This document shows positions 1 through 44,579 of a stretch of 64,000 nucleotides of DNA, in pieces (within the stretch, counting starts at the first letter, position 1; every line of letters starts with the position of its first letter). Both the position numbers and the translations under genes were made by a program. The notes under the pieces were generated by a model that was not told the origin of the DNA, did not search any database, and saw only the letters and a program-made list of their open reading frames with translations. Origin of the DNA: Candidatus Sulfomarinibacteraceae bacterium (GTDB lineage Bacteria > Acidobacteriota > Thermoanaerobaculia > Thermoanaerobaculales > Sulfomarinibacteraceae); the NCBI GenBank assembly GCA_963796455.1, contig CAWCLO010000001.1:256001-320000 (forward strand), written 5' to 3'.

Positions 1-1
1 G

Positions 2-166
2 GTGGCGGCGGCGGACAAAGACGGCAAGACCGTGCTCGATTTCAACTACGCCTACAACCCGCCCTGTGCCTTCACGCCCTACGCGACCTGCCCGCTGCCG
101 CCACCGCAGAATGTGCTGTTTGTACCGATCGAGGCGGGTGAAATGTATACCGGAGAGGCGCACTAA
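2..166 (+). CDS. DUF1684 family protein, C-terminal fragment (runs off window start)
   Basis: Manual translation ...[27 protein letters not shown]...IEAGE matches the DUF1684 C-terminal signature; stop TAA at 164-166. Confidence 0.85.
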
Positions 167-315
167 TCGACTGGATGCTGGATGCTGGGTCACTCGAGTC
201 CAAGACAGAGTCTCAGACGGCGATCAGGGACGGCGACAGCGATCAGCCTCAGCGACAGGGATCCGCGATCAGTGTTCAGCGTCAGCGAACAGTCATCAGC
301 GACAGCAAACGGCAC

Positions 316-669
316 TCACTTTCTCGGGTTCAATAGCCGCCACGTCATGGCACGGACCTGATCGAAGGCGTTCATCGCTTCAATGGCTCCGTTCAGGCTG
401 ATCGCTCCGGCGTGGGCGAGGAGCTGCAAGTGGCTGTCGACCTCTTTGGCCGAGGCGTAGGCGATTCGCCAGTGGTTCAACCGGTCTCTACCGAAGCGGC
501 CGTGACCTTCTGCCAGGTTCGCAGGGACTGAACTCGCCGATCGGACTACCTGATCGGCTATCGACTTCAGCGGAGCTGGAACTCTCATCACAAGCTTGAT
601 CGCGATGCCTGCTGCTTCGAGGGCTTTTGAGTGGGCAACGAGGTTGGTGTTCGTCGCGGCGTTGGACAT
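316..669 (-). CDS. Four-helix-bundle protein (23S rRNA IVS protein / TIGR02436-like family)
   Basis: 117 aa with family motifs DQxxRSASSVPANLAEGHGR and IAYASAKE; GGAGGTGA RBS before ATG at 669. Confidence 0.9.
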   Translation of the reverse strand: MSNAATNTNLVAHSKALEAAGIAIKLVMRVPAPLKSIADQVVRSASSVPANLAEGHGRFGRDRLNHWRIAYASAKEVDSHLQLLAHAGAISLNGAIEAMNAFDQVRAMTWRLLNPRK

Positions 670-807
670 GGTCACCTCCGGGTCGTTCATTCCCCTACCC
701 ACAAGCCGGTGTGGCGGCCGATGTCAAGGATGCCCTGCACCCTGCCTGTCCTTGACATCGGCCGCCCACCGGCTACCCCTTCCTTGGAACGACCCGGAGG
801 TGGCCAT
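668..807 (-). promoter_or_regulatory. Long leader hairpin sequestering the RBS/start codon of the four-helix-bundle gene
   Basis: 668-688 pairs with 787-807 (20/21); 704-711 with 767-774; 713-730 with 749-766 (18 bp perfect). Confidence 0.75.
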
Positions 808-1153
808 TTCGCCGACTAGACTCCTGATCGCTGCCGCCGATCGCTGACCGCTGTTCCCTGTCGCTGCCCCCTGATCGCTGTTCCCTGTCGCTGCCGCTGG
901 TCCCTGACGCTGTCCCTGTTCGCTGTTGCCTGTCGCTGGCGCTGGACACTGTCGCTGCCGCTGCAATTCGGGAACGTGATCGGGTACGTGCCAACCGCGA
1001 TCCGGATATGCCAATAAGCAACCGTGAGTCCTGGTCGAGCCATGGGGCAATTCCACCTGGCGAATTTTCTTGACGGCAGTTTTCCAGCATCTGAAATCCG
1101 GCATCCAGCGTCTAGAGTCCCGCTGAGTCAGCGGGAAATCGTTGAGGTTCTCG

Positions 1154-2248
1154 CTAAACGATCCGCTCTCTGATCTTCGCCGAAATGATGTCCATCAACC
1201 AGACGGTGCCGGCGATCAGCAGCACCAGGGTGCCGACCTCGCCCCATTCACCGAGATCCACCCTTGGTTTGAGGATGTAGCCGATGCCGCCGCCACCGAC
1301 AAAGCCGATGATTGTCGACATCCGGACATTGATGTCCCAACGATAGATGGTGAAGGAGAGAAACGGCGGGATAACCTGCGGCACGACCCCATATCGGAGC
1401 ACCTGGAGCGTGCCAGCCCCGGTGGCGGTGATGGCATCCATCGGCCCTGTGTCGATGGATTCGATCTGCTCAGAGTAGAGCTTGGTCAATGCCGCGACCG
1501 AGTGGACCCAGAGGGCGAGGACACCGGCAAAGGGCCCGATCCCGACCCACGAGATAAAGATCAGTGCCCAAACGAGGGGCTCCACCGCCCGGACAAAATT
1601 CATCAGCGTCCGTGCGACGGTGTAGGCCAGCTTGGCGCCGGTCGATCCGCGGGTCAGATTGCGGGCCGACGGGAAGGCGAGCACGAATGCCACCGGTATG
1701 GCGAAGGCGGTCGCCATGAATGCCAGGAAGATGGTCTGGACGAGCAATACCAGACCCTCGTGCAGGATGCTCGCTGACGGGTTCATGAGACCGCGGACGA
1801 TATCGGCCGCCTTGTCGAATTTGGTCAGGAAGGAGTAGAGGTCGAGCTCGGTGATCAGCCACCCGGCAAAGAAGGTGAACTGGATGAAGACGGCGACAAA
1901 CCAACCACGAAGGGTGTAGATCCAGTCGAGGCTCTTTTCTTCTTCGGGCACACCGAAGACCAGAGCGTGGCCCGGTGAGGCCCCAAGGGGACGGCTGAAA
2001 ACACTCCACAGAATCGCGAGCCCGATTCCTACGGCGCCCGCCCAGGCGTAGTGGAGCAGATCGAGGATTTCTTCCGCCGTGTAGAGCAACCCGGTGGGCC
2101 CCCGCCGACCGGAAAATGCCACCACCAGAAGCTCCACCATCACAAAGAGCGTGGCGATCAAAATGGCATCGATGCCGATCGCCTGCAAGTGGGCCAGACC
2201 GCTGCGCCAACCCGTAGGTTGCGTTGAGTGGTTTCCGGAGTCAGCCAT
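1154..2248 (-). CDS. phnE: Phosphonate/phosphite ABC transporter permease PhnE with N-terminal membrane extension
   Basis: RAVEPLVWALIF..GPFAGVLAL..KLYSEQIE..YRWDINVRMSTIIGFVGGGGIG. Confidence 0.9.
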   Translation of the reverse strand: MADSGNHSTQPTGWRSGLAHLQAIGIDAILIATLFVMVELLVVAFSGRRGPTGLLYTAEEILDLLHYAWAGAVGIGLAILWSVFSRPLGASPGHALVFGVPEEEKSLDWIYTLRGWFVAVFIQFTFFAGWLITELDLYSFLTKFDKAADIVRGLMNPSASILHEGLVLLVQTIFLAFMATAFAIPVAFVLAFPSARNLTRGSTGAKLAYTVARTLMNFVRAVEPLVWALIFISWVGIGPFAGVLALWVHSVAALTKLYSEQIESIDTGPMDAITATGAGTLQVLRYGVVPQVIPPFLSFTIYRWDINVRMSTIIGFVGGGGIGYILKPRVDLGEWGEVGTLVLLIAGTVWLMDIISAKIRERIV

Positions 2249-3022
2249 TTAAAAGCCCGTGTTCGAGGCCGGCTCGGCGTCCTCGCCATAGATTTCTTTG
2301 AAGGTGTCACGGTTGAAGTCGCCCGGTAACCCCTCCCAGACCAGGTGGCCGTCGCGGAGGGCCACCAGACGGGTCGCGTAGCGCTCCACAAGATCGATAT
2401 CGTGCAGCGAGCAGATGACAGTGAGGCCTTCTTCGCGGTTGAGCGCTTCGATGTGCCGCATCACCGAGTGCCGAAGAGCAGGATCCAGTGACGCCACCGG
2501 TTCGTCGGCCAGGATCAGCTTGGGTTCCTGCATCAGAGCTCGCGCCACCGCGACCCGCTGCTGTTGGCCACCGGATAGGGCGTCGGCGCGGCTCGATCCA
2601 CGATCACCGAGACCGACCCGTTCGAGATTCGCGTTCGCCCGATCGCGTTCCGCCTGAGGGAAAGACATCATCAGGCTCGGCAGCAGACTGCTCCGCCCGA
2701 GCGATCCGGAGAGTACATTGGCGAGCACGGTGTGGCGTCGCACCAGATTGAATTGCTGGAAGATCATCGCCACCCGGCACCGCAGACGCCGCAACGGGCC
2801 ACCTTTGAGGGCGGTGATCTCTTCGCCAAAAATCCAGACCCGGCCTTCGGTCGGGTCGATCAGACGATTGATGCATCGCAGCAGGGTCGATTTGCCGGAA
2901 CCCGAGAGACCGAGGATGGCGAGAAATTCGCCCTCACCTACCTCGAGATCGATGCCCTCGAGAGCGCGGACCCCACCGGGGTAGACCATCCCGAGACCTT
3001 CGATCCGGATTGCCGGAGTCAC
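2249..3022 (-). CDS. phnC: Phosphonate ABC transporter ATP-binding protein
   Basis: GLSGSGKST, IFQQFNLV, LSGGQQQRVAVARAL, LADEPVASLDP. Confidence 0.92.
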   Translation of the reverse strand: MTPAIRIEGLGMVYPGGVRALEGIDLEVGEGEFLAILGLSGSGKSTLLRCINRLIDPTEGRVWIFGEEITALKGGPLRRLRCRVAMIFQQFNLVRRHTVLANVLSGSLGRSSLLPSLMMSFPQAERDRANANLERVGLGDRGSSRADALSGGQQQRVAVARALMQEPKLILADEPVASLDPALRHSVMRHIEALNREEGLTVICSLHDIDLVERYATRLVALRDGHLVWEGLPGDFNRDTFKEIYGEDAEPASNTGF

Positions 3023-3042
3023 CGCAGGTTCAGGGAGCGCGT

Positions 3043-4419
3043 TCAGGACCCACCCCCACTTTTTTGCCGTTGTCGCTCGAGCTTGGCCTCGGCTGCATCG
3101 AGCAGGGCCGAGGCGCTGACCCCCGCTTCAGTCAGGGCAGTTCTGAAATCGTCGAAGTCGGCGTCAGAAGTCGGTGCGGCCGCGACTCCCGCCACCAGAT
3201 CGTAGTATGCGCCCTGGCCGTCGGGTGTCTCGAGAAAGCGCTGGAGCGATGCCTCGAATTGTCCCCAAGTGGTGGGCGAAAACCCCTTGCGTACGCAGCA
3301 CACATCATTTGGAATCGGGTCGGTGAGGGCCACGATCCGCACGTTTTCGAGCAGTTCGGCCCGCTCTTCCTTGGTCTGCATGTTCTTGAGGATCAGGAAT
3401 CGGGCGTCGCCGACCAGGGTGCCGTCGCGCAGATTTGCCGGCGAAGGAGGTGAGTAGAAGGCGGCGCCGCCCGCCACCTTGCCGTCACGAACCGCCTGCA
3501 CCACGTTGGGGTGGCCACCTGCAAAAAGCACGTGACCGAGGGTGATTCCGGATCGTTGCATCAGGGCGCGCGGAAAGATGTGGCCGGAGGTGGAAGTCTC
3601 GTCTGAGAAGGCGAAATTCGACCCGGTGAAATCATCGAGCCGTCTGAAGCCCGAGTCGGTCCGGGTCATGATGCAGCCGTAGTAGACGTTGGACAGTTCC
3701 TGTTCGGGTTGTTCGCTGGTGTGGAGAACACGTGTTTCTCTTAAGGTGCCGGGGCGCTCGTATTCGAGCTCTTTGCGGCCGTCACCGACCAGATCATTGG
3801 GCGCGGAGTAAACGTGGCGGCTCGCGGCCGCATCCACATCCCTTTCCTCCACCAGACGAAACACGGCCTCCTTGTCGCTTTCGACCGGGACCTCGATCCA
3901 ACCCGGTGCCTTCTCGTCCAGAAGTGCAACCAGCGAGGTGCGGAGCCTGCCCTCGATCACCTTTGGAACGGCGATGCGTCGATCCGAAAGCCCTTCGAGG
4001 CGTTGCGGCTCGCCGGCGCCCGATCGCGTGGTCACGATTGCGTAGCGATCCAGCGATCGCACCACCTGAAGTCGGGCCTCGGCGCCGTAACGGGCGTTGG
4101 CAAGGACATAAGCAAAGGCCGGGATCCACGCCACATCGGCCTGACCGGCTCCGAGAGCCTGGATCACCGCTGCATAACTGGTAGGGACCTGAGACCGCAG
4201 GGTCAGACCGCTGTCCTCACGAATGAAGCGTGCGAGCTCGTCTCCCCGTCGCACGAGCGTCCCCTGCTCCACCGACGGCACGAAGAGCATCTGGATCGCC
4301 TGCTGGCCACGCATTTCGAGCTGCGACCTGTGGTACAGGCCCCAGATGAACCCAACCAGGGCCAGGCTGATCAGCAGCCAACCCAGTCGCGGAACCCACG
4401 GATTCGGTCGTCTCGCCAT
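3043..4419 (-). CDS. phnD: Phosphate/phosphite/phosphonate ABC substrate-binding protein, enlarged
   Basis: PTSYAAVIQAL, STSGHIFP, GGH, PIPND motifs; N-terminal hydrophobic anchor; upstream of phnC/phnE. Confidence 0.85.
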   Translation of the reverse strand: MARRPNPWVPRLGWLLISLALVGFIWGLYHRSQLEMRGQQAIQMLFVPSVEQGTLVRRGDELARFIREDSGLTLRSQVPTSYAAVIQALGAGQADVAWIPAFAYVLANARYGAEARLQVVRSLDRYAIVTTRSGAGEPQRLEGLSDRRIAVPKVIEGRLRTSLVALLDEKAPGWIEVPVESDKEAVFRLVEERDVDAAASRHVYSAPNDLVGDGRKELEYERPGTLRETRVLHTSEQPEQELSNVYYGCIMTRTDSGFRRLDDFTGSNFAFSDETSTSGHIFPRALMQRSGITLGHVLFAGGHPNVVQAVRDGKVAGGAAFYSPPSPANLRDGTLVGDARFLILKNMQTKEERAELLENVRIVALTDPIPNDVCCVRKGFSPTTWGQFEASLQRFLETPDGQGAYYDLVAGVAAAPTSDADFDDFRTALTEAGVSASALLDAAEAKLERQRQKSGGGS

Positions 4420-4488
4420 AACGATGTGCCAGTCGGCGGGAAGCCTAGCACACCGCCCGGGGCTCGTTCACCTGTTGTCCAAGCCGAC

Positions 4489-5673
4489 TCAAGCGTGCGG
4501 CGTCGGCTCCGGTTTGAGCGATTCCATGACCTCTTCCATGGCACGCAGCCGCATCTCCTGCAACCAGCTCGACTTGACCACCCGCTGTTGCCAGATCTCG
4601 TGCATCACCGGGTAGCGCGGAACATCACCTCGTTCGTCAAATGCCACCGCACCGGTGACCCCGGTGAAATCCCGCAGACCAATGGTCATGTACTGGCGAA
4701 GCACCCGCGGGTGGTGCGCCTGTGCCTTCGACAGGGTCCGGATCGCAACGCGCATTGCGTCGTACCCATGCGCGGCATAGATATCCGGCGAAGTCCCGTA
4801 CTCGAGCTGATAACGTTCGGCAAAACTCGCCACCTGCCCTTCCTTGGCGGCGACATCAAATGCAACCAGAGGAAAAACAACCCCTTCGGCCGCCGCGCCG
4901 CCGCGCTCGATCACGTGGCTGAGGTACAGGCTGGAGGTGGCCGCACGAACTCCCTCGTACGCGACCGAGTGGAGCATTTCCAGCACCTGCAGGGTGTTGT
5001 CGCCGTGCCCCACAACGTAGACCGCCTGCGGTTCGTGGGCGTGGAGCATGTCGGACAACTGGGTTTTCCAGTATTCGACTCCGGTGTGAATCGTGGCGAG
5101 AATCTCTCCTCCCAGATTGAGTTCAAAATGCTGCCGAAACTCGGTTTCGATGCCTCGAGTAAACACCGAATCATCAGTCACGACCACAACTCGGCGCACC
5201 GCGCGCTGGCTGAAGAGGTGCCGCGCCGCCGTGCTTCCTTCGACCTCGTCGGTGGCAAAGAGGCGAAAGAAATAGCGGCTGCGGCTCGCCAGTAGATTCG
5301 CCGGGGCTGAGGGTGAAACACACAGGACGTGGTTTTTCTCGACTACGGGAATCAGCGCCTCCGCCTCGTCGGTCGTGACCCCACCAACCACGATTGCGAT
5401 GTCGTGCTCGTTGACGAGGCGCTGCAGTTCGTCAGCAGCCACCTTGGCCCTCGACGCCGTATCGGCCTCGAAGACCTGACACCCTGCCGGCAAGACGGCA
5501 AGCTCTTCGGCTTCAGCCAGGGCCATCCGGATGCCGTTGCCGACCGATTTTCCGTAGTCGCTTGCAGCACCCGTGGTCGGCAGCAGAACGCCCATCGAAC
5601 GCTCGCCGCCGCATCCGGCGGCGACCAGCAGAACAAGGACAGCGATGCGATGAATCGACCTCGAATCGAACAT
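4489..5673 (-). CDS. Branched-chain amino acid-type (LivJ/K-like) periplasmic binding lipoprotein
   Basis: Lipobox AAGC; GVLLPTTG..YG, YAAHGYDA, FTGVTGAVAFDERGD; GGAGGTG RBS before ATG 5673. Confidence 0.8.
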   Translation of the reverse strand: MFDSRSIHRIAVLVLLVAAGCGGERSMGVLLPTTGAASDYGKSVGNGIRMALAEAEELAVLPAGCQVFEADTASRAKVAADELQRLVNEHDIAIVVGGVTTDEAEALIPVVEKNHVLCVSPSAPANLLASRSRYFFRLFATDEVEGSTAARHLFSQRAVRRVVVVTDDSVFTRGIETEFRQHFELNLGGEILATIHTGVEYWKTQLSDMLHAHEPQAVYVVGHGDNTLQVLEMLHSVAYEGVRAATSSLYLSHVIERGGAAAEGVVFPLVAFDVAAKEGQVASFAERYQLEYGTSPDIYAAHGYDAMRVAIRTLSKAQAHHPRVLRQYMTIGLRDFTGVTGAVAFDERGDVPRYPVMHEIWQQRVVKSSWLQEMRLRAMEEVMESLKPEPTPHA

Positions 5674-6042
5674 GGTCACCTCCAATTGGTTGTTCGGTAC
5701 ACAGAGCTTCTCCATCCATGTTACGAAGGGGAAGACGCCGCCATCAGGGAAAATGAGCGAAAATGACGCTCCTGTGACGGTTACTGGCCTCCAGTCACGT
5801 TGAAGCCATGGAATTCGAGCTTTGCGGGTCTGCTAACCTGCCTTCGAGCCGCCGGGGCGGCCGCGACGACCGCACCCGGACTCACCATCTTCTGTTCCGG
5901 GAGGACGAACACGTCTCACCGCTCCACCTTGTTCCTTGTCATCCTCAGCCTTGCCACGTCGACCGCGATGGCGGTGGAGGTGCTGATCGAGAGCCTCGCC
6001 ACCGATCCGAGAACCGGAGCCTGGTGATCTCGTAGTAACGAT

Positions 6043-7131
6043 ATGCGCCACGGACACACCCCTCGGATCGCCGGCACGTGTTGGCCGGCGATCCTTTTTT
6101 GCGGCCTCCTTCTCGCCGCCGCCATCGGCGCAGCGCAGGAGACCCCGACACCCTTCGGCACCGTGGTCGAGGTGACCAGGATCCTGACCGAAGTCCGCGT
6201 CGTCGATTCGGACGGAATGCCGGTCCTCGGTCTGGGACCTGAGAACTTCCGGGTCAAGGTCGACGGGCAAAAGGTGGAGGTCGAATCGGTATCGTGGATC
6301 CCATCCACCGCCGCCGAGGCGGCTCGTTCGGCCGAAGGATCGCCTCGTCCCGAAAACGATTCGGCGGATCGGCAAAAATCCGAGGGCCGGTTGATCGTTT
6401 TCGTGTTCCAGAAAGACATCGCCCTGCGCTATTCACGAACGGTAGGTCTCGCCCAGATTGCACCCCACGCGCAAGAGTTCATCAGGAGTTTCGGCCCGGA
6501 TGATCGCGTCGCGGTCCTGGTTTTCGGCAGCCATCTCGAACTTCGGGCGGACTTTACCGCCGACCACGAGGCGGTGGCCGAAATGGTCACCACAACCGAG
6601 GTTCTGGCCGGTCGAATCGTGCCCCCGGATCCCGACGGGCCATCGCTTGCGGCCCACCTCGACTCTCTCGATATGAAGAGGGCTGCCACCATGAGCCGGG
6701 CCCTCGAGCTGATAGGCCAGGCGTTGCAACCCATCGAGGGAACCAAATCGATGATCTTCATCGGATTCGGGCTCGGCCAGATGAGCGCCGGTCCTCGAGT
6801 CACCGTCGGGGATCAATACCGGCTGGCGATGGAGGCCCTGACCGCGGCCCGCACCTCGGTGTTTTCGATCGATATCACCGATGCCGATGCGCACTCACTC
6901 GAGCTCGGGATGCGCATCGTCAGCGAGGACACCGGCGGTTTCTATATGAAGACAAACATCTTCCCCGAGGTCGCGATGACCATGCTGGCGAAGGTCATCT
7001 CGAGCTATTACGAACTCTCGATCATCCCGCCTCCCGATCTCGATGAGAGCTACAAGATCAAGGTCAAGGTGGATCGTCCCAAGACGGATGTTTATGTCCG
7101 TCAGTGGCATCCGTCGTCGTACAGTTTTTAA
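6043..7131 (+). CDS. Acidobacterial-type VWA domain secreted protein
   Basis: Signal peptide; VRVVDSDGMPVLGLGPENF, DRVAVLVF, DFTADH, EDTGG, YYELS, IKVKVDRP pattern. Confidence 0.75.
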   Translation: MRHGHTPRIAGTCWPAILFCGLLLAAAIGAAQETPTPFGTVVEVTRILTEVRVVDSDGMPVLGLGPENFRVKVDGQKVEVESVSWIPSTAAEAARSAEGSPRPENDSADRQKSEGRLIVFVFQKDIALRYSRTVGLAQIAPHAQEFIRSFGPDDRVAVLVFGSHLELRADFTADHEAVAEMVTTTEVLAGRIVPPDPDGPSLAAHLDSLDMKRAATMSRALELIGQALQPIEGTKSMIFIGFGLGQMSAGPRVTVGDQYRLAMEALTAARTSVFSIDITDADAHSLELGMRIVSEDTGGFYMKTNIFPEVAMTMLAKVISSYYELSIIPPPDLDESYKIKVKVDRPKTDVYVRQWHPSSYSF

Positions 7132-7181
7132 GCGCCATCAGCGCATGCAAACGTCGTGGTCCTTCGTTAGTGGACCTCAAC

Positions 7182-7254
7182 GGGCTATGGGCTATGGGCT
7201 ATGGGCTATGAGGCTATGAGGCTATGAGGCTACGAGGCTATGAGGCTATGAGGC
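7182..7254 (+). repeat. Tandem array 4x GGGCTAT + 5x GAGGCTAT/C
   Basis: Read directly; related arrays at 15581-15657, 17116-17170 (inverse), 26153-26226, 28960-28991. Confidence 0.95.
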
Positions 7255-7298
7255 CAGGCCGACCGGTAATTTCGTTCCGAGCACGCGCCACTCTCTCA

Positions 7299-7413
7299 AT
7301 GTCATCCTGAGCGGAGCGCCCCGGCGCGTAGTCGAAGGATCTGCAGATTCGGATTTTTACAGGCCGTCCCATAGATACTTCGACTCCGGCTTCGCCTCCG
7401 CTCAGGATGACAT
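7299..7413. repeat. REP-like palindromic element (ATGTCATCCTGAGCG...CGCTCAGGATGACAT), copy 1
   Basis: Terminal inverted repeats plus internal GTCGAAGGATCT/AGAT(A/C)CTTCGAC pair; four copies in window. Confidence 0.9.
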
Positions 7414-7442
7414 CCGGGGACGGCAGCGACAGAGAGCAGCAA

Positions 7443-7796
7443 TCACCTCGTCGGGTTCAACAGGCGCCAGGTCATGGCACGGACCTGATCGAAGGCGTGC
7501 ATCGCTTCACTGGCTCCATTCCTGCTGATCGCCCCAGCGTGAGCGAGAAGCTGCAAGTGGCTGTCAACATCTTTCGCCGAGGCGTAGGCGATCCTCCAGT
7601 GGTTCAACCGGTCTCTACCGAATCGGCCGTGCCCTTCTGCCAGGTTCGCAGGGACTGAACTCGCCGATCGGATCACTTGATCGGCTATGGACTTCAGCGG
7701 AGCTGGAACCCTCATCACAAGCTTGATGGCGATACCTGCTGCTTCGAGGGCTTTCGAGTGTGCAGCGAGATCGGTGTTCGTGGCGGCTGAGGACAT
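7443..7796 (-). CDS. Four-helix-bundle protein, paralog of 316-669
   Basis: 117 aa, 10 substitutions relative to copy 1 by manual comparison; GGAGG RBS. Confidence 0.9.
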   Translation of the reverse strand: MSSAATNTDLAAHSKALEAAGIAIKLVMRVPAPLKSIADQVIRSASSVPANLAEGHGRFGRDRLNHWRIAYASAKDVDSHLQLLAHAGAISRNGASEAMHAFDQVRAMTWRLLNPTR

Positions 7797-7799
7797 GGT

Positions 7800-7929
7800 C
7801 GCCTCCGGGTCGTTCATGCCCATACCCACAAGCCGGTGTGGCGGCCGATGTCAAGGATGCCCTGCACCTTGCCTGTCCTTGACATCGGCCGCCCACCGGC
7901 TACCCGTACTGTTGAACGACCCGGAGGTG
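7800..7929 (-). promoter_or_regulatory. Leader hairpin sequestering RBS, copy 2
   Basis: 7800-7816 pairs with 7913-7929; core identical to copy 1 except one loop base. Confidence 0.75.
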
Positions 7930-8181
7930 GGCACGCCGTCGCTGAACCTGATTGCTGCCGCTGAACTCTGATCGCTGATCGCTGTTCGCCGTCCCTGTTC
8001 GCTGTTGCCTGTCGCTGACGCTGGACACTGTCGCTGCCGCTGCAATTCGGACGCGGGCACGGGCACGGGCACGGGCACGGGCAACCGCGAACCGGATATG
8101 CCAAAAACCAATCCGTAAGCCACTTGTTGTAAGGAGGGAAACTCCATGTGACGATCTGTTTTGGACAACAGTGCACGCAAC

Positions 8182-8212
8182 AAAAAAACCGGCGCCCGAG
8201 GGCGCCGGTTTT
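8182..8212 (-). terminator. Intrinsic terminator (possibly bidirectional) after PDZ gene
   Basis: AAAAAAACCGGCGCCC-GA-GGGCGCCGGTTTT. Confidence 0.8.
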
Positions 8213-8232
8213 GACACTGATAACGGAAAATT

Positions 8233-8703
8233 CTATTCGTTCGATGCCATCTGCAGTTCGGCGTGGTCCATCATGTGGCCGCCGATCCACTGCGCCATCA
8301 CGTTGTCCGGGATGTTGCCCAGCTCGATGTCGAGGTCGATTTTCTTGCCTGAGCGCGCGACCGTGTAGGTGAATTCGGCTCCGGGTTTCATGGCGTATTG
8401 GACGTCCTTGATCTGCTTCTGGTTCTCTTCCGAAAATTTGACGCCGTTCACCGCCACGAGAACATCGCCCTTTTTGAAGCCGGCCGTTTCGGCCGGGCTG
8501 TCTTCGACAACCTTGGTGATGACCATCTTGCCCATGCCGCCTTCGTCATCCATCTCGATACCGACCCAACCTCGGTTCTTGAGGTTCTGTGCCATATGGT
8601 CGAGACAATCCTGAGTCGAAGAGGTGCATTTTTCGCCCGCCATCGCAGGCGCCGACATGACCATCATCGTCACCACCGCAATCACGGTTATCATCTTCCT
8701 CAT
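8233..8703 (-). CDS. Secreted PDZ-domain protein
   Basis: Signal peptide; GWVGIEM..ITKVVEDSPAETAGFKKGDVLVAVNG PDZ signature. Confidence 0.85.
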   Translation of the reverse strand: MRKMITVIAVVTMMVMSAPAMAGEKCTSSTQDCLDHMAQNLKNRGWVGIEMDDEGGMGKMVITKVVEDSPAETAGFKKGDVLVAVNGVKFSEENQKQIKDVQYAMKPGAEFTYTVARSGKKIDLDIELGNIPDNVMAQWIGGHMMDHAELQMASNE

Positions 8704-8882
8704 TCATACCTCCTGTGTCCCCCGAACACACAATGACACCGGCCCCATGCCGGATGCCGAGCACATTCGAAACTGAAACTGCGATTCATTACAAGAACAA
8801 CTACGGCAAGGTCAGGTCGATGTTTCAACCACTTACACAGGCGGCGATATGCCATAATTCCTCCCTACATGGAGGTCATCGC

Positions 8883-9809
8883 ATGAAAACCACAATCAAT
8901 CGAGCTTTCGTAGTGATCGCGATCTGTCTACTCTCGGTCAGCTGCGCAAAAACAAATGCCGCGCCGGCGCCCAATATGGGCCTTCCGGACAGCCCCGACG
9001 GAACCGTCAAAGCAATCGCTGAAAATCTCGTCAACCATCAGCCGGCAATCATCTGGCAGGCTCTCCCTGAGAGTTATCGCAATGACCTCGCCGAACTGAC
9101 CGGAACCTTTGCCGCCAAAATGGATCCTGTTCTTTACGACCGCACGCTGGCTGTTGTTGGTCGCGCAGTCGAGGTTCTGATCGAGAAAAAGCCGATCATC
9201 CTCGAGAGCCAGACCGCGGCGATGAGCGGTGTCAATCCCGAGCAACTTGACCAGGGCATGGGTTCGAGCCTTGCCATGGTCCAGACGCTTCTCGCAAGCG
9301 AAGTTTCCACCATCGCCGGACTCCAGGCGATCAACTGGGAGACCTTCCTGCAGACGACCGGTTCGGAACTTCTCATTCAAGCCGAAGCGATCAAGAGTGA
9401 AGAAGGGGAAGACCCGCTGGCAAAGCTCTCGACCCTCGAGGTGGAGGTGCTCGAAAGCACGGACGAAACCGCAAAGCTCCGCCTCTTGATCGAAGGTGAG
9501 GAACCGGAAGAAGTCGATCTGACCCGCGTCGAGGGTCGTTGGGTCCCGGCGGATTTGGCCAGAGAATGGCCGCAGATGATGGCCGATGCCCGGAAAGACC
9601 TCGATGAGATGGACCAGGAAAAAATGGACGAGATGAAGGGCCAGGCCCTGATGGGCCTGGCAATGGCCGAAGGCTTGATCGAACAGGTCGCCATGGTCGA
9701 AACAGCCGAAGAATTCGATGCGATGATCGGCCCGATGATCCAGGCCATGATGGGTTCCATGGGATCCATGATGCCGGAGGACGAGGACTACGGCCCGGAC
9801 GAAGGCTAG
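8883..9809 (+). CDS. Hypothetical lipoprotein
   Basis: GGAGG RBS, lipobox LSVSC, acidic helical body. Confidence 0.75.
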   Translation: MKTTINRAFVVIAICLLSVSCAKTNAAPAPNMGLPDSPDGTVKAIAENLVNHQPAIIWQALPESYRNDLAELTGTFAAKMDPVLYDRTLAVVGRAVEVLIEKKPIILESQTAAMSGVNPEQLDQGMGSSLAMVQTLLASEVSTIAGLQAINWETFLQTTGSELLIQAEAIKSEEGEDPLAKLSTLEVEVLESTDETAKLRLLIEGEEPEEVDLTRVEGRWVPADLAREWPQMMADARKDLDEMDQEKMDEMKGQALMGLAMAEGLIEQVAMVETAEEFDAMIGPMIQAMMGSMGSMMPEDEDYGPDEG

Positions 9810-11892: not shown

Positions 11893-12452
11893 AGTTTTGA
11901 GTTTTGAGTTTTGGGTTTTGAGTTCGGGCCCGTTTCGCGTTCCATTCGACCGGCTGGCGAAGGGGCGGAGGGGCGGAGGAGAAAGGGGGAACAAGCAACA
12001 CGATGCTGGATGCTGGATGCTCGATCCCGAGCCCGAGCCCGTTGCCGTTACCGAACAGGGAAAGGGGGAAAGGGAGAAAGGGAGAACCGGCCGGCACTGA
12101 TTTCGCCTGCATGCGAATGTCGCCTCCTGATGTCATCCTGAGCGGAGCGCCTTCGGCGCGTAGTCGAAGGATCTGCGGACCGAAGACTGTTCCGTCCATC
12201 CCATAGATCCTTCGACTTCGCCCCCTGTGGGGCTACGCTCAGGATGACATCTTGAACGACAGTTCCGTTCCCGTTCCCGTTCCCGAAAGGGTGAAAGGGT
12301 GAAAGGGTGAAAGGGAGAAAGGGAGAAAGGGAGAAAGGGAGAACCGTACCGGAAGCGACGGACGTGATAAGATCTGGTCCTCTGCTCCTCTGCTCCTCTG
12401 CTCCTCTGCTCCTCTGCTCCTCTGCTCCTCTGCTCCTCTGCTCCTCTGCTCC
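11893..12452. repeat. Composite intergenic repeat mosaic (TTTTGAG, GATGCTG, CCCGTT-type hexamers, GGGAGAAA, REP-like palindrome 12129-12251, 9x TCCTCTGC 12378-12449)
   Basis: Read directly; modules recur at 41930-42150 and 44165-44485. Confidence 0.9.
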
Positions 12453-12483
12453 CATTCCCATTGCTGCGCTACACTTCCTCCTC

Positions 12484-14070: not shown

Positions 14071-14258
14071 CAGTTTTGAGGTTTGAGGTTTGAGGTTGGA
14101 GTTCCAATCCACAACCCGGAATGCGAATTCGAAAACCGGGTTCCCGTCCGCCCACACCCAGACCGAATCAGAAAAAGAGCAATTGCAAACTGTGCTTGCT
14201 TCCACCAGTCTGGCGCCCAACTCAAAACTCAACACTCAAAACTCAAAACTCAAAACTG
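14071..14258. repeat. Inverted pair of heptamer arrays (TTTGAGG/TTTTGAG left, CTCAAAA right) around ~115 bp
   Basis: CAGTTTTGAG at 14071 and CTCAAAACTG ending at 14258 are exact inverted termini. Confidence 0.85.
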
Positions 14259-15580: not shown

Positions 15581-15657
15581 GGGCCATGGGCTATAGGCTA
15601 TAAGCGATGGGCTTTAGGCCATGGGCTATGGGCTATGAGCTATGAGCTATGGGCCCT
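15581..15657 (+). repeat. Degenerate GGGCTAT heptamer array
   Basis: Read directly after mutM stop. Confidence 0.85.
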
Positions 15658-15762
15658 AAGCGATAAGCTTTTTTGGCTCAGCTTTTTGCAGAAAACCCGC
15701 TGGAGGCGTTCGAGCCCACGGCCCCGGCTGAAGTACCATGGAGCCCGGAAGTGGAGGCATCG

Positions 15763-17079: not shown

Positions 17080-17115
17080 TGGACTCTGCGGCTATGGACA
17101 GTTCGGATTCGGCGT

Positions 17116-17170
17116 CATAGCCTCATAGCCCATAGCCCATAGCCCCATAGCCTCATAGCCCCATAGCCTC
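17116..17170 (-). repeat. CATAGCC(C/TC) array (reverse complement of GGCTATG arrays)
   Basis: Read directly. Confidence 0.9.
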
Positions 17171-17192
17171 GTCGTCCCATTGCCAATGCCCG

Positions 17193-26123: not shown

Positions 26124-26152
26124 CGCCCGGGCTTCGGCCCGGGCGTTTTTTT
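26124..26152 (+). terminator. Intrinsic terminator
   Basis: CGCCCGGGC-TTCG-GCCCGGGCG-TTTTTTT. Confidence 0.9.
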
Positions 26153-26226
26153 GGCTATGGGCTGTGGTATTGGGGCTATGGGGCTATGGGGCTATGGGGC
26201 TATGGGGCTATGAGGCTATGAGGCTT
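26153..26226 (+). repeat. GGGGCTAT/GAGGCTAT octamer array
   Basis: Read directly, immediately after terminator. Confidence 0.9.
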
Positions 26227-26331
26227 TTGGGGCTCTGAGGTTGTGGCGCGACGAGGGCGAACAACTGGAAAACCCTCAAAGCCTCACCGCCAGGCCGCGC
26301 CGGCGGCCGATCATCGCCTCACAGCCTGTGC

Positions 26332-29037: not shown

Positions 29038-29219
29038 CGAGGCCGGGTCGGAACCGATCTGTCTTCCGATAGGAACCGGAGCTTGCCTTCAGTCGTGGAG
29101 GCAAAAGGTAGGGAGAGGCGCCGGAGTTCGTACGAGATGATGTTTGGGGAGGACGTGGATGACCGACCAGGGTTTGTATCTTGCTGGTCGGACCTCGAAT
29201 GCTCAGTGGGTCTTTTCAA

Positions 29220-29338
29220 GATGTCATCCTGAGCGCAGCGCCTCGGGCGCGGAGTCGAAGGATCTGCGGCTTCGTTGTCCTTCCGGCCACCCATAGATCC
29301 TTCGACTACGCCCTGCAGGCTCCGCTCAGGATGACATC
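29220..29338. repeat. REP-like palindromic element, copy 3
   Basis: GATGTCATCCTGAGCG...CGCTCAGGATGACATC. Confidence 0.9.
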
Positions 29339-29408
29339 CGGAAGCGACCTGGGCTTGCCTTCAGTCGTGGGGCAGCAGGTAGGGGCAGCCCTGATATCAG
29401 GGAGGAAC

Positions 29409-36193: not shown

Positions 36194-36373
36194 CGGGACG
36201 AATCCATGGGACCACGGGCGGAGGGAGGTGTCAACACGACCCTTCGAGAGCGGGTTGTGCAGTGAAAGATCGTGCTTCAAATCAGCGAGTTCAAGGCCAC
36301 GTGTCACTACTGTCCAATAAAAATCGTCATTTGACGGTGCCCACCTGACAACACGAGGTTTATGGGTTGATTG

Positions 36374-36738
36374 TTGGCATTTCCGGTTCGTGGTTGCGCC
36401 GCGTCCGAGTCGGCGTCCGTGCCCGTATTACAGCGGCAGCGACAGTGTCCAGGGGCAGCGACAGGAACCAGCGATCAGTGTTCAGCAACAGGGAACAGCG
36501 GCAGTGGCAGCAATCCGGTGCAGTGATGGCGTGGTCACCTCCGGGGCGTTCAACAGAAGGAAGAGCCGCTGTGGTGTAGGCGTCTCGCCTGCCCACCGTG
36601 CGGCCGAGACGGCCGCACCACAAAGACCGGAGCCCCGAAGAAGTGAGTGCTGTTCGCTGTCCCGGCCGCTGATCGCTGACGCTGAATCCTGTTCGCTGTC
36701 GCTGGACGCTTATCGAGACTCCTGGTTGGAAAAGAGTG
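36374..36738 (+). mobile_element. ORF-less (MITE-like) derivative of the four-helix-bundle element
   Basis: Keeps the TTGGCAT.TCCGGTTCG.GGTTG end, CAGCGGCAGCGACAGTGTCCAG arm, first hairpin arm, the gene's stop context (AAGTGAGTGC) and the GAGACTC..TTGGA..GAGTG end. Confidence 0.65.
36570..36622. repeat. TGTGGTG...CACCACA REP-like palindrome
   Basis: TGTGGTGTAGGCGTCTCG pairs imperfectly with CGAGACGGCCGCACCACA. Confidence 0.7.
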
Positions 36739-36867
36739 GTCACGAGTGAAGAGTGATGGGCTCCCGGGAGGCGGGCCGGCTCAACCCCTGACCCTGAACT
36801 CCAGACTCTTCTCGCGACGGCGAGGCGATCAACGTTTATGATGGCTATCGCGCAGCAAGGGGGCACT

Positions 36868-41909: not shown

Positions 41910-41929
41910 AGCGAGAGGACGGCGCAGAG

Positions 41930-42150
41930 GGACGGAGGAGAAAGGGAGAAAGGGAGAAGAAGGGAGAAAGGGAGCACCTTACCGGAAGCCCCGATTGTGA
42001 TAAGGATCGGGTCTCCTCTGCTCCTCTGCTCCTCTGTCTCTCTTCTCCTCTCTCCTTGCTCCTCTGCTCCTCTGCTCCTCTGCTCCTCTGCTCCTCTGCT
42101 CCTCTGCTCCTCTGCTCCTCTGCTCCTCTGCTCCTCTGCTCCTCTGCTCC
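41930..42150. repeat. Composite repeat: GGGAGAAA array, conserved linker, CTCCTCTG x3 + x11
   Basis: Same module order as 12286-12452. Confidence 0.92.
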
Positions 42151-43056
42151 TCAGCCCGCCTGTAGCTTCTTGGAGCAATATCGAAATAGTCCGGCCGAAC
42201 TCTCCTTCACCGGACACAGTCGGCGGTACCGCTCGATCGCCTCGGTGGGCACCGCTGACGCTTCCATCTCGACTGCATCGAGGGACTCGAGTTCAGACCC
42301 GAGCGCGTCTCGGTCACCTCCATCGGCGAGCACACGGTCACCGATCTCGGTCCACCGAAGCAACCGATCCTCGAGTTCATCGAGATGCCGGACGGGATCA
42401 TCGAAGCTGCCGTAATGGGTCAACATCAGTTGTTTTGGTTCGAGGGCCCGCAGCTGGTCGATGCTTCTTCGCCAGTCATCGACCTGGATATCGGGCGGCG
42501 GCATCGGCGGCAGAACGTGCGAGGCTCCGGGAAAACGGACTCCCGCCACGTCTCCCGTCACGACGGTGCCGCCGATCTGCCACGCAACGTGGTGAACCGC
42601 ATGGCCAGGGGTGTGCCAGGCCACCACGTCGAGGCCCCGGATCGATACCACTTCGCCATCCGCGACCTCTACGACATTTTCCGGTTCGACCGCGACCGTC
42701 GTTCCCCACAGGGGCGTCATCATCTCGCCGTAGATTCGTTCGGCAGACGGCAATAGCTTCGCGTGGGGATCAGCCAAATGGGCCGCGCCCTTCGGATGGC
42801 AGTAGACCGGACACCCGGTCCGGCTCGACAGAACGCCGGCCCCGCCCGCATGATCGAGGTGGACGTGGGTCGGAAAGACCCCGGCAAGCTGATCGAGGCG
42901 AAATCCCAGCTCTTCGATCCCGCGTTCGAGATTTCCAAAGCAACTCGCCGGGCCAGGATCAAAAAGCACGAAACCGTCTTCCACCGGCGCCAGAAAGGAC
43001 GCGATGATCTGCTCGGTTGCATAGAACCGGAGGTCCACCGTGTGAATCTTCGTCAT
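42151..43056 (-). CDS. Metallo-beta-lactamase-fold hydrolase
   Basis: THVHLDHAGG, TPGHAVHH, TGDVAG, THYG. Confidence 0.92.
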   Translation of the reverse strand: MTKIHTVDLRFYATEQIIASFLAPVEDGFVLFDPGPASCFGNLERGIEELGFRLDQLAGVFPTHVHLDHAGGAGVLSSRTGCPVYCHPKGAAHLADPHAKLLPSAERIYGEMMTPLWGTTVAVEPENVVEVADGEVVSIRGLDVVAWHTPGHAVHHVAWQIGGTVVTGDVAGVRFPGASHVLPPMPPPDIQVDDWRRSIDQLRALEPKQLMLTHYGSFDDPVRHLDELEDRLLRWTEIGDRVLADGGDRDALGSELESLDAVEMEASAVPTEAIERYRRLCPVKESSAGLFRYCSKKLQAG

Positions 43057-44164: not shown

Positions 44165-44485
44165 CCTGTCCGATCCCGATCCCGTTCCCGTTCCCGTTCC
44201 CGAAAGGGAGAAAGGGAGAAAGGGAGAGAGGGAGAGAGGGAGAACCACCCGGCGCTTATTTCGTCCGCTTTCGATTCCCGCCTCCCGATGTCATACAGAT
44301 ACGGCCTCCGGCACCTGTTCCTACCTGTTGCCACCGCGACTCAAAGCAAGCTCCGGTCCCTTCCGGATGTCATCCTGAGCGGAGCCCTGCAGGGCGTAGT
44401 CGAAGGATCTATGGTGCGGCCGGAAAGATATCGAAGACTAAGATCCTTCGACTCCGCGCTCGAAGCGCTGCGCTCAGGATGACAT
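44165..44485. repeat. Composite repeat: CCCG(A/T)T hexamers, GGGAGA(A/G)A array, linkers, REP-like palindrome copy 4 (44367-44485)
   Basis: Modules homologous to 12023-12251 and, inverted, to 29065-29390. Confidence 0.88.
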
Positions 44486-44579
44486 ATTGAAACCGTCTAC
44501 CGCTGCAGAAGCGACGCGGCGTCCGAAGTCTGATCAGGATCCCTCGATTTCCCGGAAGTGGGATCACCCACATGGATCT

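Follow-up and report, generated by a model that had tools for sequence, protein, structure and literature searches.

We analysed a window of 64,000 nt (positions 256,001-320,000 of contig CAWCLO010000001.1; coordinates below are window positions unless stated) from the genome of a Candidatus Sulfomarinibacteraceae bacterium. The window holds three intergenic copies of a short repeated unit, two of which carry a gene for a four-helix-bundle protein of the family named after the intervening sequences (IVS) of 23S rRNA. We conclude, at a probability of about 0.8, that the unit is a non-autonomous mobile insertion cassette or miniature inverted-repeat transposable element (MITE)-type transposon derived from an insertion sequence (IS) of the IS4 family. 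This assignment rests on its IS4-family ends, including their left/right asymmetry, and on its 7-bp target duplication. On this reading the unit spread by a known kind of mechanism; its cargo, the constraint on that cargo and its modular build are unusual and unexplained.

Terminal repeats, target duplications and the parent insertion sequence

The assembly comprises 5.02 Mb in 10 contigs and is 90.5% complete. A tblastn search of the genome with the protein gave 102 high-scoring segment pairs (HSPs), of which 58 span the full length without a stop; these full-length matches were spread over 8 of the 10 contigs. The Pfam model PF05635 matched 70 places, of which the four top-scoring were divergent genes outside this copy family. 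Profiles of the two ends of the unit detected 128 upstream and 158 downstream ends in the whole genome. Both ends lay no more than 900 nt apart in 86 units, comprising 39 gene-bearing units (at least 650 bp) and 47 shorter, gene-less ones. The gene-bearing unit is ~850-890 bp long and the gene-less form about 246-623 bp.

Alignment of 58 copies with their flanks showed that the unit ends in terminal inverted repeats of 19-25 nt, TCACTGCTGTCCAAAACAG... on the upstream side of the gene and ...CTGTCTTGGACAAGAGTGA on its downstream side. A 7-bp target duplication was perfect in 26 of 69 units and matched at 6 of 7 positions in a further 18, compared with 3.2% and 9.1% for shuffled partners; at the other lengths from 5 to 10 bp, the same 69 units gave no perfect match. 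Both forms showed the duplication, which reached at least 6 of 7 positions in 17 of 30 gene-bearing and 27 of 39 open reading frame (ORF)-less units. The 44 best duplications yielded the palindromic target consensus T-S-C-W-G-S-A. Tandem arrays with a period of 7 or 14 adjoined 86 of 248 termini genome-wide, and 86 of the 88 arrays adjoining a terminus had these periods. The period of these arrays corresponds to the length of the target duplication, and their commonest unit, TCCAGCA/TGCTGGA, to the target consensus. The arrays at the termini are either hot spots or duplications multiplied through repeated visits.

A genus-wide search with DDE_Tnp_1 gave matches in 10 of 25 genomes and one relevant locus, in congener G017. 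The element at this locus, 1.42 kb in length, consists of a gene between two repeats 1.41 kb apart, with CAGTCTTGTCCAAAACCG at one end and an 18/18 match to the upstream repeat of the cassette at the other. Its 425-aa product matched DUF4372 (85.3 bits), DDE_Tnp_1 (90.6 bits) and the NCBIfam model transpos_IS4_1 (NF033592; 251.2 bits versus a cut-off of 115). Relatives of this transposase were taken from public genomes at 41 loci; those with 44-67% identity showed the same repeats ~1.4 kb apart and the same asymmetry. The metagenome-assembled genomes of these relatives are labelled Magnetococcales, Bacteriovoracaceae, Krumholzibacteriota, Acidobacteriota, Thermodesulfobacteriota and Anaerolineales. 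The autonomous elements have a CTCTTG-type repeat (or ACTTG/GTCTTG) upstream of the transposase and a CTGCTG-type repeat downstream. The cassettes retain this asymmetry, reversed relative to their own gene, with the CTGCTG type upstream in 61 of 69 and the CTCTTG type downstream in 56 of 69. Among three autonomous copies whose junctions were read, two had perfect 7-bp duplications at TCACT...AGTGA termini and one did not. None of the 41 transposase loci contained a four-helix-bundle gene.

The only ORF of the cassette with a family match is the PF05635 gene, and no transposase was found between or beside the cassette end pairs of this genome. Four end pairs more than 900 nt apart enclosed no transposase-like frame and, by reading, apparently hold ordinary host genes; inward-facing repeat pairs 0.95-5.5 kb apart were absent from the genome. 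Searches of the window's genome for the cognate transposase gave a best E value of 4.9 with tblastn and nothing with blastn. The copies would be moved by cut and paste, with an IS4-type DDE transposase supplied in trans. Since such an enzyme is not in the present assembly, the copies in this genome probably do not move at present, or do so only at times when the IS is there.

Other candidates for a mobiliser were rejected. The single DDE_Tnp_1 gene of the genome belongs to an IS with unrelated ends, and a 498-aa DDE protein in two congeners (G004 and G006) has a repeat look-alike that is merely internal and due to chance. Long repeats of the genome, considered as possible autonomous copies, turned out to be a frame resembling IS91 (by reading), a Y1_Tnp gene, tuf and surface-protein repeats. 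The IS91-like frame, of 356 aa, reads like an IS91-type (Y2) transposase and lies in three copies of a 1.7-1.8-kb repeat (C6:36900-39100 and C7:279899-286913, in contig coordinates). The Y1_Tnp gene occurs in two copies at C4:1143372-1147449, 97% identical over 1.1 kb; its 342-aa product combines Y1_Tnp (IS200-like) with a weak DnaA-C-like helix-turn-helix and is a RAYT-like transposase.

The unit has the ends and the target duplication of an IS, lacks a transposase and carries a passenger gene, and it is thus a mobile insertion cassette by definition; its short form is a MITE. In MIC231 and other such cassettes with ends of the IS231/IS4 family (Chen 1999 and De Palmenaer 2004, cited in PMC2266710), IS4-family repeats likewise surround a passenger gene without a transposase; these cassettes duplicate their target as the parent IS does and have to be moved in trans. 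However, the present unit has a far higher copy number, with 39 complete gene-bearing units and 58 intact genes. Its passenger is under purifying selection in all copies and is accompanied by its own covarying leader and inverted repeat arms. Furthermore, its parent IS generates 7 bp, as opposed to the 10-12 bp given for the IS231 subgroup in the same source, and is absent from the host genome. The 47 short units (246-623 bp) resemble MITEs in their terminal inverted repeats, target duplications, palindromic build and high copy number, whereas each of the 39 long units has an intact gene under selection, and a MITE by definition has none.

The parent IS resembles the IS4 family in its transpos_IS4_1 score, its DDE_Tnp_1 domain and its length of 1.4 kb; unlike IS4 elements, the cassette itself has no transposase. 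PMC2266710 gives ~10 bp as the typical IS4-family duplication and 7-8 bp for the subgroup ISPepr1, a range that includes the 7 bp of the parent IS. However, the termini of the parent IS (TCACTG...) do not fit the end consensus of this subgroup, and the AT-rich target preference reported there for ISPepr1 differs from the TSCWGSA target of the cassette. The same paper names the YREK motif as a criterion for the IS4 family.

Copies in the window and orthologous loci

The three window copies and their parts are listed in Table 1. The initial annotation had placed copy 1 in a unit of ~820 bp, and all the parts that it named (gene, hairpin, arms and two end motifs) were found, including the motif GAGACTC..TTGGA..GAGTG at 190-214. 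Its downstream boundary stands. On the upstream side, the unit extends ~70 nt further, to the terminal inverted repeat, giving copy 1 a full span of 190-1082, and TTGGCATATCCGG, which had been taken as the unit end, is a conserved inner module in the alignment of 58 copies with flanks. The second gene-bearing copy and the ORF-less copy with both ends that had been reported are both real; the proteins of copies 1 and 2 differ at 10 of 117 residues in a manual count on the translations. The flanks of copy 3, CCACGTG and TCACGAG, are identical at 5 of 7 positions. The genome-wide counts of 102 HSPs, 128 upstream ends and 158 downstream ends are far more than chance would give. The proposal that gene, hairpin and arms spread together without an encoded transposase is borne out by dozens of copies and by empty orthologous loci. 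Contrary to what had been suggested, the unit is not a new kind of repeat-bounded element; its terminal inverted repeats and 7-bp target duplication make it a non-autonomous derivative of the IS4 family.

Table 1. Features of the cassette copies and associated repeats in the window
Feature	Position	Strand	Basis and remarks
Heptamer tandem array, GGATGCT type	166..189	.	Adjoins the downstream end of copy 1; sequence reading
Copy 1, downstream terminal inverted repeat	190..214	-	Type of the upstream-of-transposase repeat of the parent IS; downstream-end profile match 190-224
Copy 1, 3' arm, degenerate TCGCTG-type hexamer array (gene strand)	217..302	-	86 nt, 79% complementary to 841-926
Copy 1, four-helix-bundle gene, 117 aa	316..669	-	ATG 669-667, stop 318-316; PF05635, TIGR02436
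Copy 1, leader hairpin, 140 nt	668..807	-	3' basal arm includes Shine-Dalgarno GGAGGTG (673-679) and start codon; fold, covariation
Copy 1, 5' arm, degenerate CAGCGA-type hexamer array	841..976	-	Inverted pairs including 841-926 with 217-302; fold
Copy 1, conserved inner module TTGGCATATCCGG..CGCGGTTG	991..1014	-	Sequence reading and alignment of copies
Copy 1, upstream terminal inverted repeat, decayed	1056..1082	-	Upstream-end profile match 991-1072, low score 32
Heptamer array, inverted relative to 166-189	1083..1110	.	Adjoins the upstream end of copy 1; sequence reading
Palindromic repeat (GTCATCCTGAGCG.. family), unrelated	7299..7415	.	Adjoins and cuts off the downstream end of copy 2
Copy 2	7416..8174	-	Gene 7443-7796; upstream terminal repeat with outer edge at 8174; lacks downstream arm and downstream terminal repeat
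Copy 3, ORF-less	36304..36739	+	Both terminal repeats, both arms, leader start, different small central hairpin
Short tandem arrays, examples	7175-7262, 11893-11927, 12265-12460, 15582-15672, 17112-17191, 26137-26232, 41918-42190, 44182-44244		

We compared the DUF1684-phnE locus, which holds copy 1, among congeners that have both flanks, leaving out five further loci with one flank missing. The cassette was present in 0 of 14. In the 4 of these 14 congeners whose spacer was read, a 308-333-aa gene, probably encoding an outer-membrane protein, lies in its place. The gap in the window's genome is 993 nt, almost the same length as in the congeners. This near-equal length and the missing target duplication suggest an element-mediated replacement at copy 1, in which a lineage-specific copy would have taken the place of a gene. 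At the VWA-PDZ locus, none of the four congeners with both flanks carries the cassette, and their spacers are 166-308 nt long, compared with 1107 nt here. Outside this genome, 20 of 24 members of the genus have the hairpin and gene region of the cassette, as do 3 of 16 genomes from a neighbouring family. The closest gene pair within the genome differs at 3 of 351 sites. Contigs from four DNA runs over window positions 1-9000 included none that spans the whole cassette, with pieces of 137-392 nt among those listed.

Other repeats were seen in the same genome. It contains 2644 merged short tandem arrays with periods of 6-14, totalling 81 kb, which is very many for a 5-Mb bacterium (examples in Table 1). 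A palindromic repeat family with arms GTCATCCTGAGCG[G/C]AGC...GTCGAAGGATC lies at 7299-7415, 12129-12256, 29214-29370 and 44361-44492 of the window, and its GTCATCCTGAGCG motif has 204 genome matches with at most 2 mismatches on both strands. An insertion sequence of 1.35 kb, which has a 394-aa frame and inverted ends of its own (GACATGGGTAACAC...), interrupts one cassette (C3:12445-14330); the four-helix-bundle gene of this cassette also has an internal deletion.

Cargo gene, leader hairpin and inverted arms

The proteins of copies 1 and 2 matched PF05635 with 54.0 bits (E value of 2e-14) and 51.7 bits, respectively, above the cut-off of 33.8, and that of copy 1 matched TIGR02436 with 56.7 bits against a cut-off of 24. 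Sequence matches in the Protein Data Bank (PDB) were 2gsc (E value of 0.004) and 2rld (E value of 0.076). A single-sequence AlphaFold2 model consisted of four long helices and a 5-residue helix, with a mean pLDDT of only 62.9. PADLOC and PHROGs returned no family for the protein. The four-helix-bundle "IVS protein" family is widespread and, to our knowledge, lacks an assigned function. Each of the 58 full-length genes is exactly 128 codons long when counting starts at an upstream GTG. Over the 1653 pairs of these 58 copies, dN was 0.057 and dS 0.36, a ratio of 0.157, and differences at codon positions 1, 2 and 3 numbered 12513, 9185 and 42301, respectively. In 8 mutual nearest pairs, pN/pS was 0.19. 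The gene is under purifying selection, which has acted since the latest duplications.

The leader hairpin of copy 1 folds with -104.8 kcal/mol (z score of -8.3), and none of 200 shuffled sequences was as stable. Within this genome, the nucleotide diversity (pi) is ~0.03 in the hairpin core, compared with 0.065, 0.047 and 0.219 at codon positions 1, 2 and 3, and is ~0.3 in the arms. Covariation was assessed with RNAalifold on 25 sequences from 16 genomes of the genus, which gave 50 predicted pairs with 96.5% of the cells pairing. Compensatory changes occurred in 20 of these 50 pairs of a consensus derived from the same alignment, compared with 7.9 ± 1.6 in 500 shuffles, none of which reached 20, and with 4-8 for slid partners. 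In the basal helix, CATGG..CACCTCC, which lies upstream, pairs with the Shine-Dalgarno sequence GGAGGTG and with the start codon, and the two bases between the Shine-Dalgarno sequence and the AUG covary with their partners. The structure of the hairpin is conserved across the genus, and within this genome its sequence is conserved as well. Rfam gave nothing at gathering score for the hairpin; five sub-threshold matches were mostly microRNA-like.

In the mRNA, this hairpin would hide the ribosome-binding site and the start codon, and translation would need opening of the stem; the leader may thus be a translational gate. The strong conservation of the hairpin sequence suggests a sequence-specific partner, and that the protein itself is this partner is a guess. 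The Avd/S23p-like protein may be a nucleic-acid binder, for which its own leader would be the likeliest target, in an autoregulatory manner.

Folding of the 821-nt unit (z score of -8.8, 20 shuffles) gave a minimum-energy and a centroid structure, and in both of them the 5' and 3' arms paired around the hairpin and the gene. The long stem formed in this way would insulate the transcript or lead to its processing, in the manner of the ORF-bearing 23S rRNA IVS. Inverted arrays likewise flank each of the four divergent PF05635 genes; their units are two different octamers, a heptamer and a hexamer, and these arms are 87-97% complementary over 20-34 nt. This bracketing was observed with no formal control, and the genome has 2644 arrays. 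The arms around the divergent paralogs point to selection for a stem, or to a stem-generating mechanism. In the window, inverted (AGTTTTG)n and (CAAAACT)n arrays at 11893-11927 and 14216-14250 enclose a pair of ordinary genes, one with a frame of 324 aa and one with a frame of 262 aa that by reading resembles exonuclease III. Inverted arrays thus also occur around genes of other kinds, which limits the weight of the argument from the arms.

Weighing of the explanations

Several observations weigh against the assignment of the unit to an IS4-derived cassette, or against parts of the model built on it. The cognate transposase was found in only 1 of 25 genus genomes and not in the window's genome (assembly 90.5% complete). 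Copy 1 lacks a target duplication, its upstream repeat is decayed and its flanking heptamer arrays are inverted, so that it resembles a rearrangement and not a simple insertion. A simple passenger in a transposase-less element would be expected to decay, yet 58 of 58 genes are intact and strongly constrained, which the cassette model leaves unexplained. Prediction of sigma-70-type promoters and terminators gave 0 sites, and the covariation test shares its alignment with the structure that it evaluates. The arms showed no better fit within a copy than between copies (48.9 versus 48.1 in 22 long units and 39.7 versus 41.4 in 31 short units), and their lengths are uncorrelated (r of -0.41 and 0.09). 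Furthermore, the IS4 ends are not the sole vehicle. In congener G014, the same arms, leader and gene occur in a different terminal-repeat frame with an 8-bp duplication. This frame consists of GGCTCATCCGG-type (GGCTCATCCGGAATT-type) inverted repeats, which always adjoin AACGTTC and lie within AACGTT-type arrays. Both ends were recognised in 7 of 11 copies; in a manual reading, the flanks of these seven repeat the 8-bp NAACGTTC perfectly in two and at 7 of 8 positions in three, with the other two unscored. A module related to TTGGCATATCCGG..CGCGGTTG is also present in the G014 copies, and the repeat type of this frame matches the window's genome at just 2 places, both loosely.

Debate about where rRNA intervening sequences come from dates back to 1990. 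The module might be foremost an IVS-like RNA element, in which RNase III cuts the duplex of the arms and frees the gene-bearing loop from a read-through transcript, with transposon ends as a late vehicle. We regard this as possible but doubtful. The predicted pairing of the arms around hairpin and gene would agree with it, as would the inverted short tandem repeats of four different units around all four divergent PF05635 genes and the occurrence of the same module in two unrelated terminal-repeat frames. In the ORF-bearing 23S rRNA IVS of Coxiella burnetii, Leptospira and others, inverted flanks build a long stem whose loop holds this protein family, the arrangement predicted for the unit, and the ribosome-binding site is likewise hidden or removed. 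In the Coxiella IVS, a gene of this family lies in a stem cut by RNase III, with short tandem repeats beside it, namely heptamers before the start codon (PMC4990558). However, the unit lies in intergenic DNA and not in rRNA; it resembles an IVS in layout but lacks the defining location inside a 23S rRNA helix. The Coxiella ORF is moreover reported to be decaying and probably not expressed, whereas the gene of the unit is under purifying selection. The 23S rRNA of the genome (C10:140644-143654) is 3011 nt long against a 2925-position model and therefore has no ORF-sized insert. Within the family there is no copy-specific fit of the arms, and the brackets around the paralogs were observed without a formal control in a genome with so many arrays. 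An IVS-like origin would also leave the spread unaccounted for, whereas terminal repeats and target duplications do account for it.

It is unlikely that the four-helix-bundle protein is a mobility factor that binds the hairpin or the arms and on which transposition or retention depends, preferentially in cis. Such a role would account for the intact gene in each copy; in its favour, purifying selection persists even in the closest pairs and the hairpin sequence is more conserved than the protein. PMC4990558 quotes rRNA inserts as transposon remnants, or as mobile elements with an ORF that aids mobility, as unproven ideas, and traces the hypothesis of the IVS ORF as a mobility component to Ralph and McClelland 1993. 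The related Avd is the accessory protein of a retroelement (PMC10053308). However, gene-less copies are as numerous as gene-bearing ones (47 versus 39) and have equally good target duplications, and 0 of 41 transposase loci hold such a gene. In addition, we know of no catalytic motif in the four-helix-bundle family.

A single-strand HUH transposase of the IS200/RAYT type could recognise the big hairpin, as for REPINs. The genome does contain the two copies of the gene with Y1_Tnp and DnaA-C-like domains, palindromic repeats are abundant in it, and the hairpin of the unit is very stable. However, the hairpin is central and not subterminal, and the exact 7-bp duplications and terminal inverted repeats are shared with a DDE-type IS. 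Target duplications and terminal inverted repeats of the DDE type are not features of HUH elements; repeats mobilised in the manner of REPINs by RAYT lack a target duplication, whereas the unit has an exact one of 7 bp. Spread by this route is very improbable and is refuted by the duplications observed. Retro-mobilisation by a reverse transcriptase like that of diversity-generating retroelements (DGRs), with the Avd-like protein as a cofactor, is more improbable still. PF05635 does resemble Avd, and the bAvd of DGRs belongs to a four-helix-bundle family homologous to the protein of the unit, according to PMC10053308. However, the unit is a single-gene cassette with no template/variable repeat pair, no RVT_1 match and hence no reverse transcriptase was found in the genome (assembly 90.5% complete), and the terminal repeats with a fixed 7-bp duplication fit a DDE transposase. 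An ordinary, immobile family of paralogs from local or segmental duplication is refuted. Two of the three window copies are only 7 kb apart, as such a duplication would predict, but full-length gene matches lie on 8 of 10 contigs, the copies share sharp common ends with site-specific 7-bp duplications, and the orthologous loci lack the cassette. The initial annotation would have given way to a local duplication if only these copies existed and were syntenic in relatives; instead, copies are many, and 0 of 14 and 0 of 4 congeners carry the cassette at the two loci.

The IS4-derived cassette thus remains our explanation for the spread of the unit. A further, rather improbable reading concerns what is carried: arms, leader hairpin and gene together might themselves be the selfish module, a free-living form of the 23S rRNA ORF inserts. 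If so, expression of the module, its retention or its transfer from carrier to carrier would be secured by the Avd-like protein through binding to its own conserved leader or arms. This would explain the ~60 intact selected copies, the two transposon frames (7-bp and 8-bp) and the arms around every divergent paralog. Some of the thousands of intergenic tandem arrays would then be tracks of the element, that is, target duplications multiplied at hot spots.

We found no literature linking this protein family to MITEs or cassettes, in a search that mostly did not cover subscription journals. For a bacterium, a non-autonomous element that carries a gene and reaches such a high copy number is unusual. 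The cassette places an IVS-protein gene in a clearly defined transposon whose ends and target are known and which comes with a candidate transposase and a covarying leader, so that an old idea becomes testable at the bench. The cassette is therefore a practical way into the study of this gene family and of the rRNA inserts.

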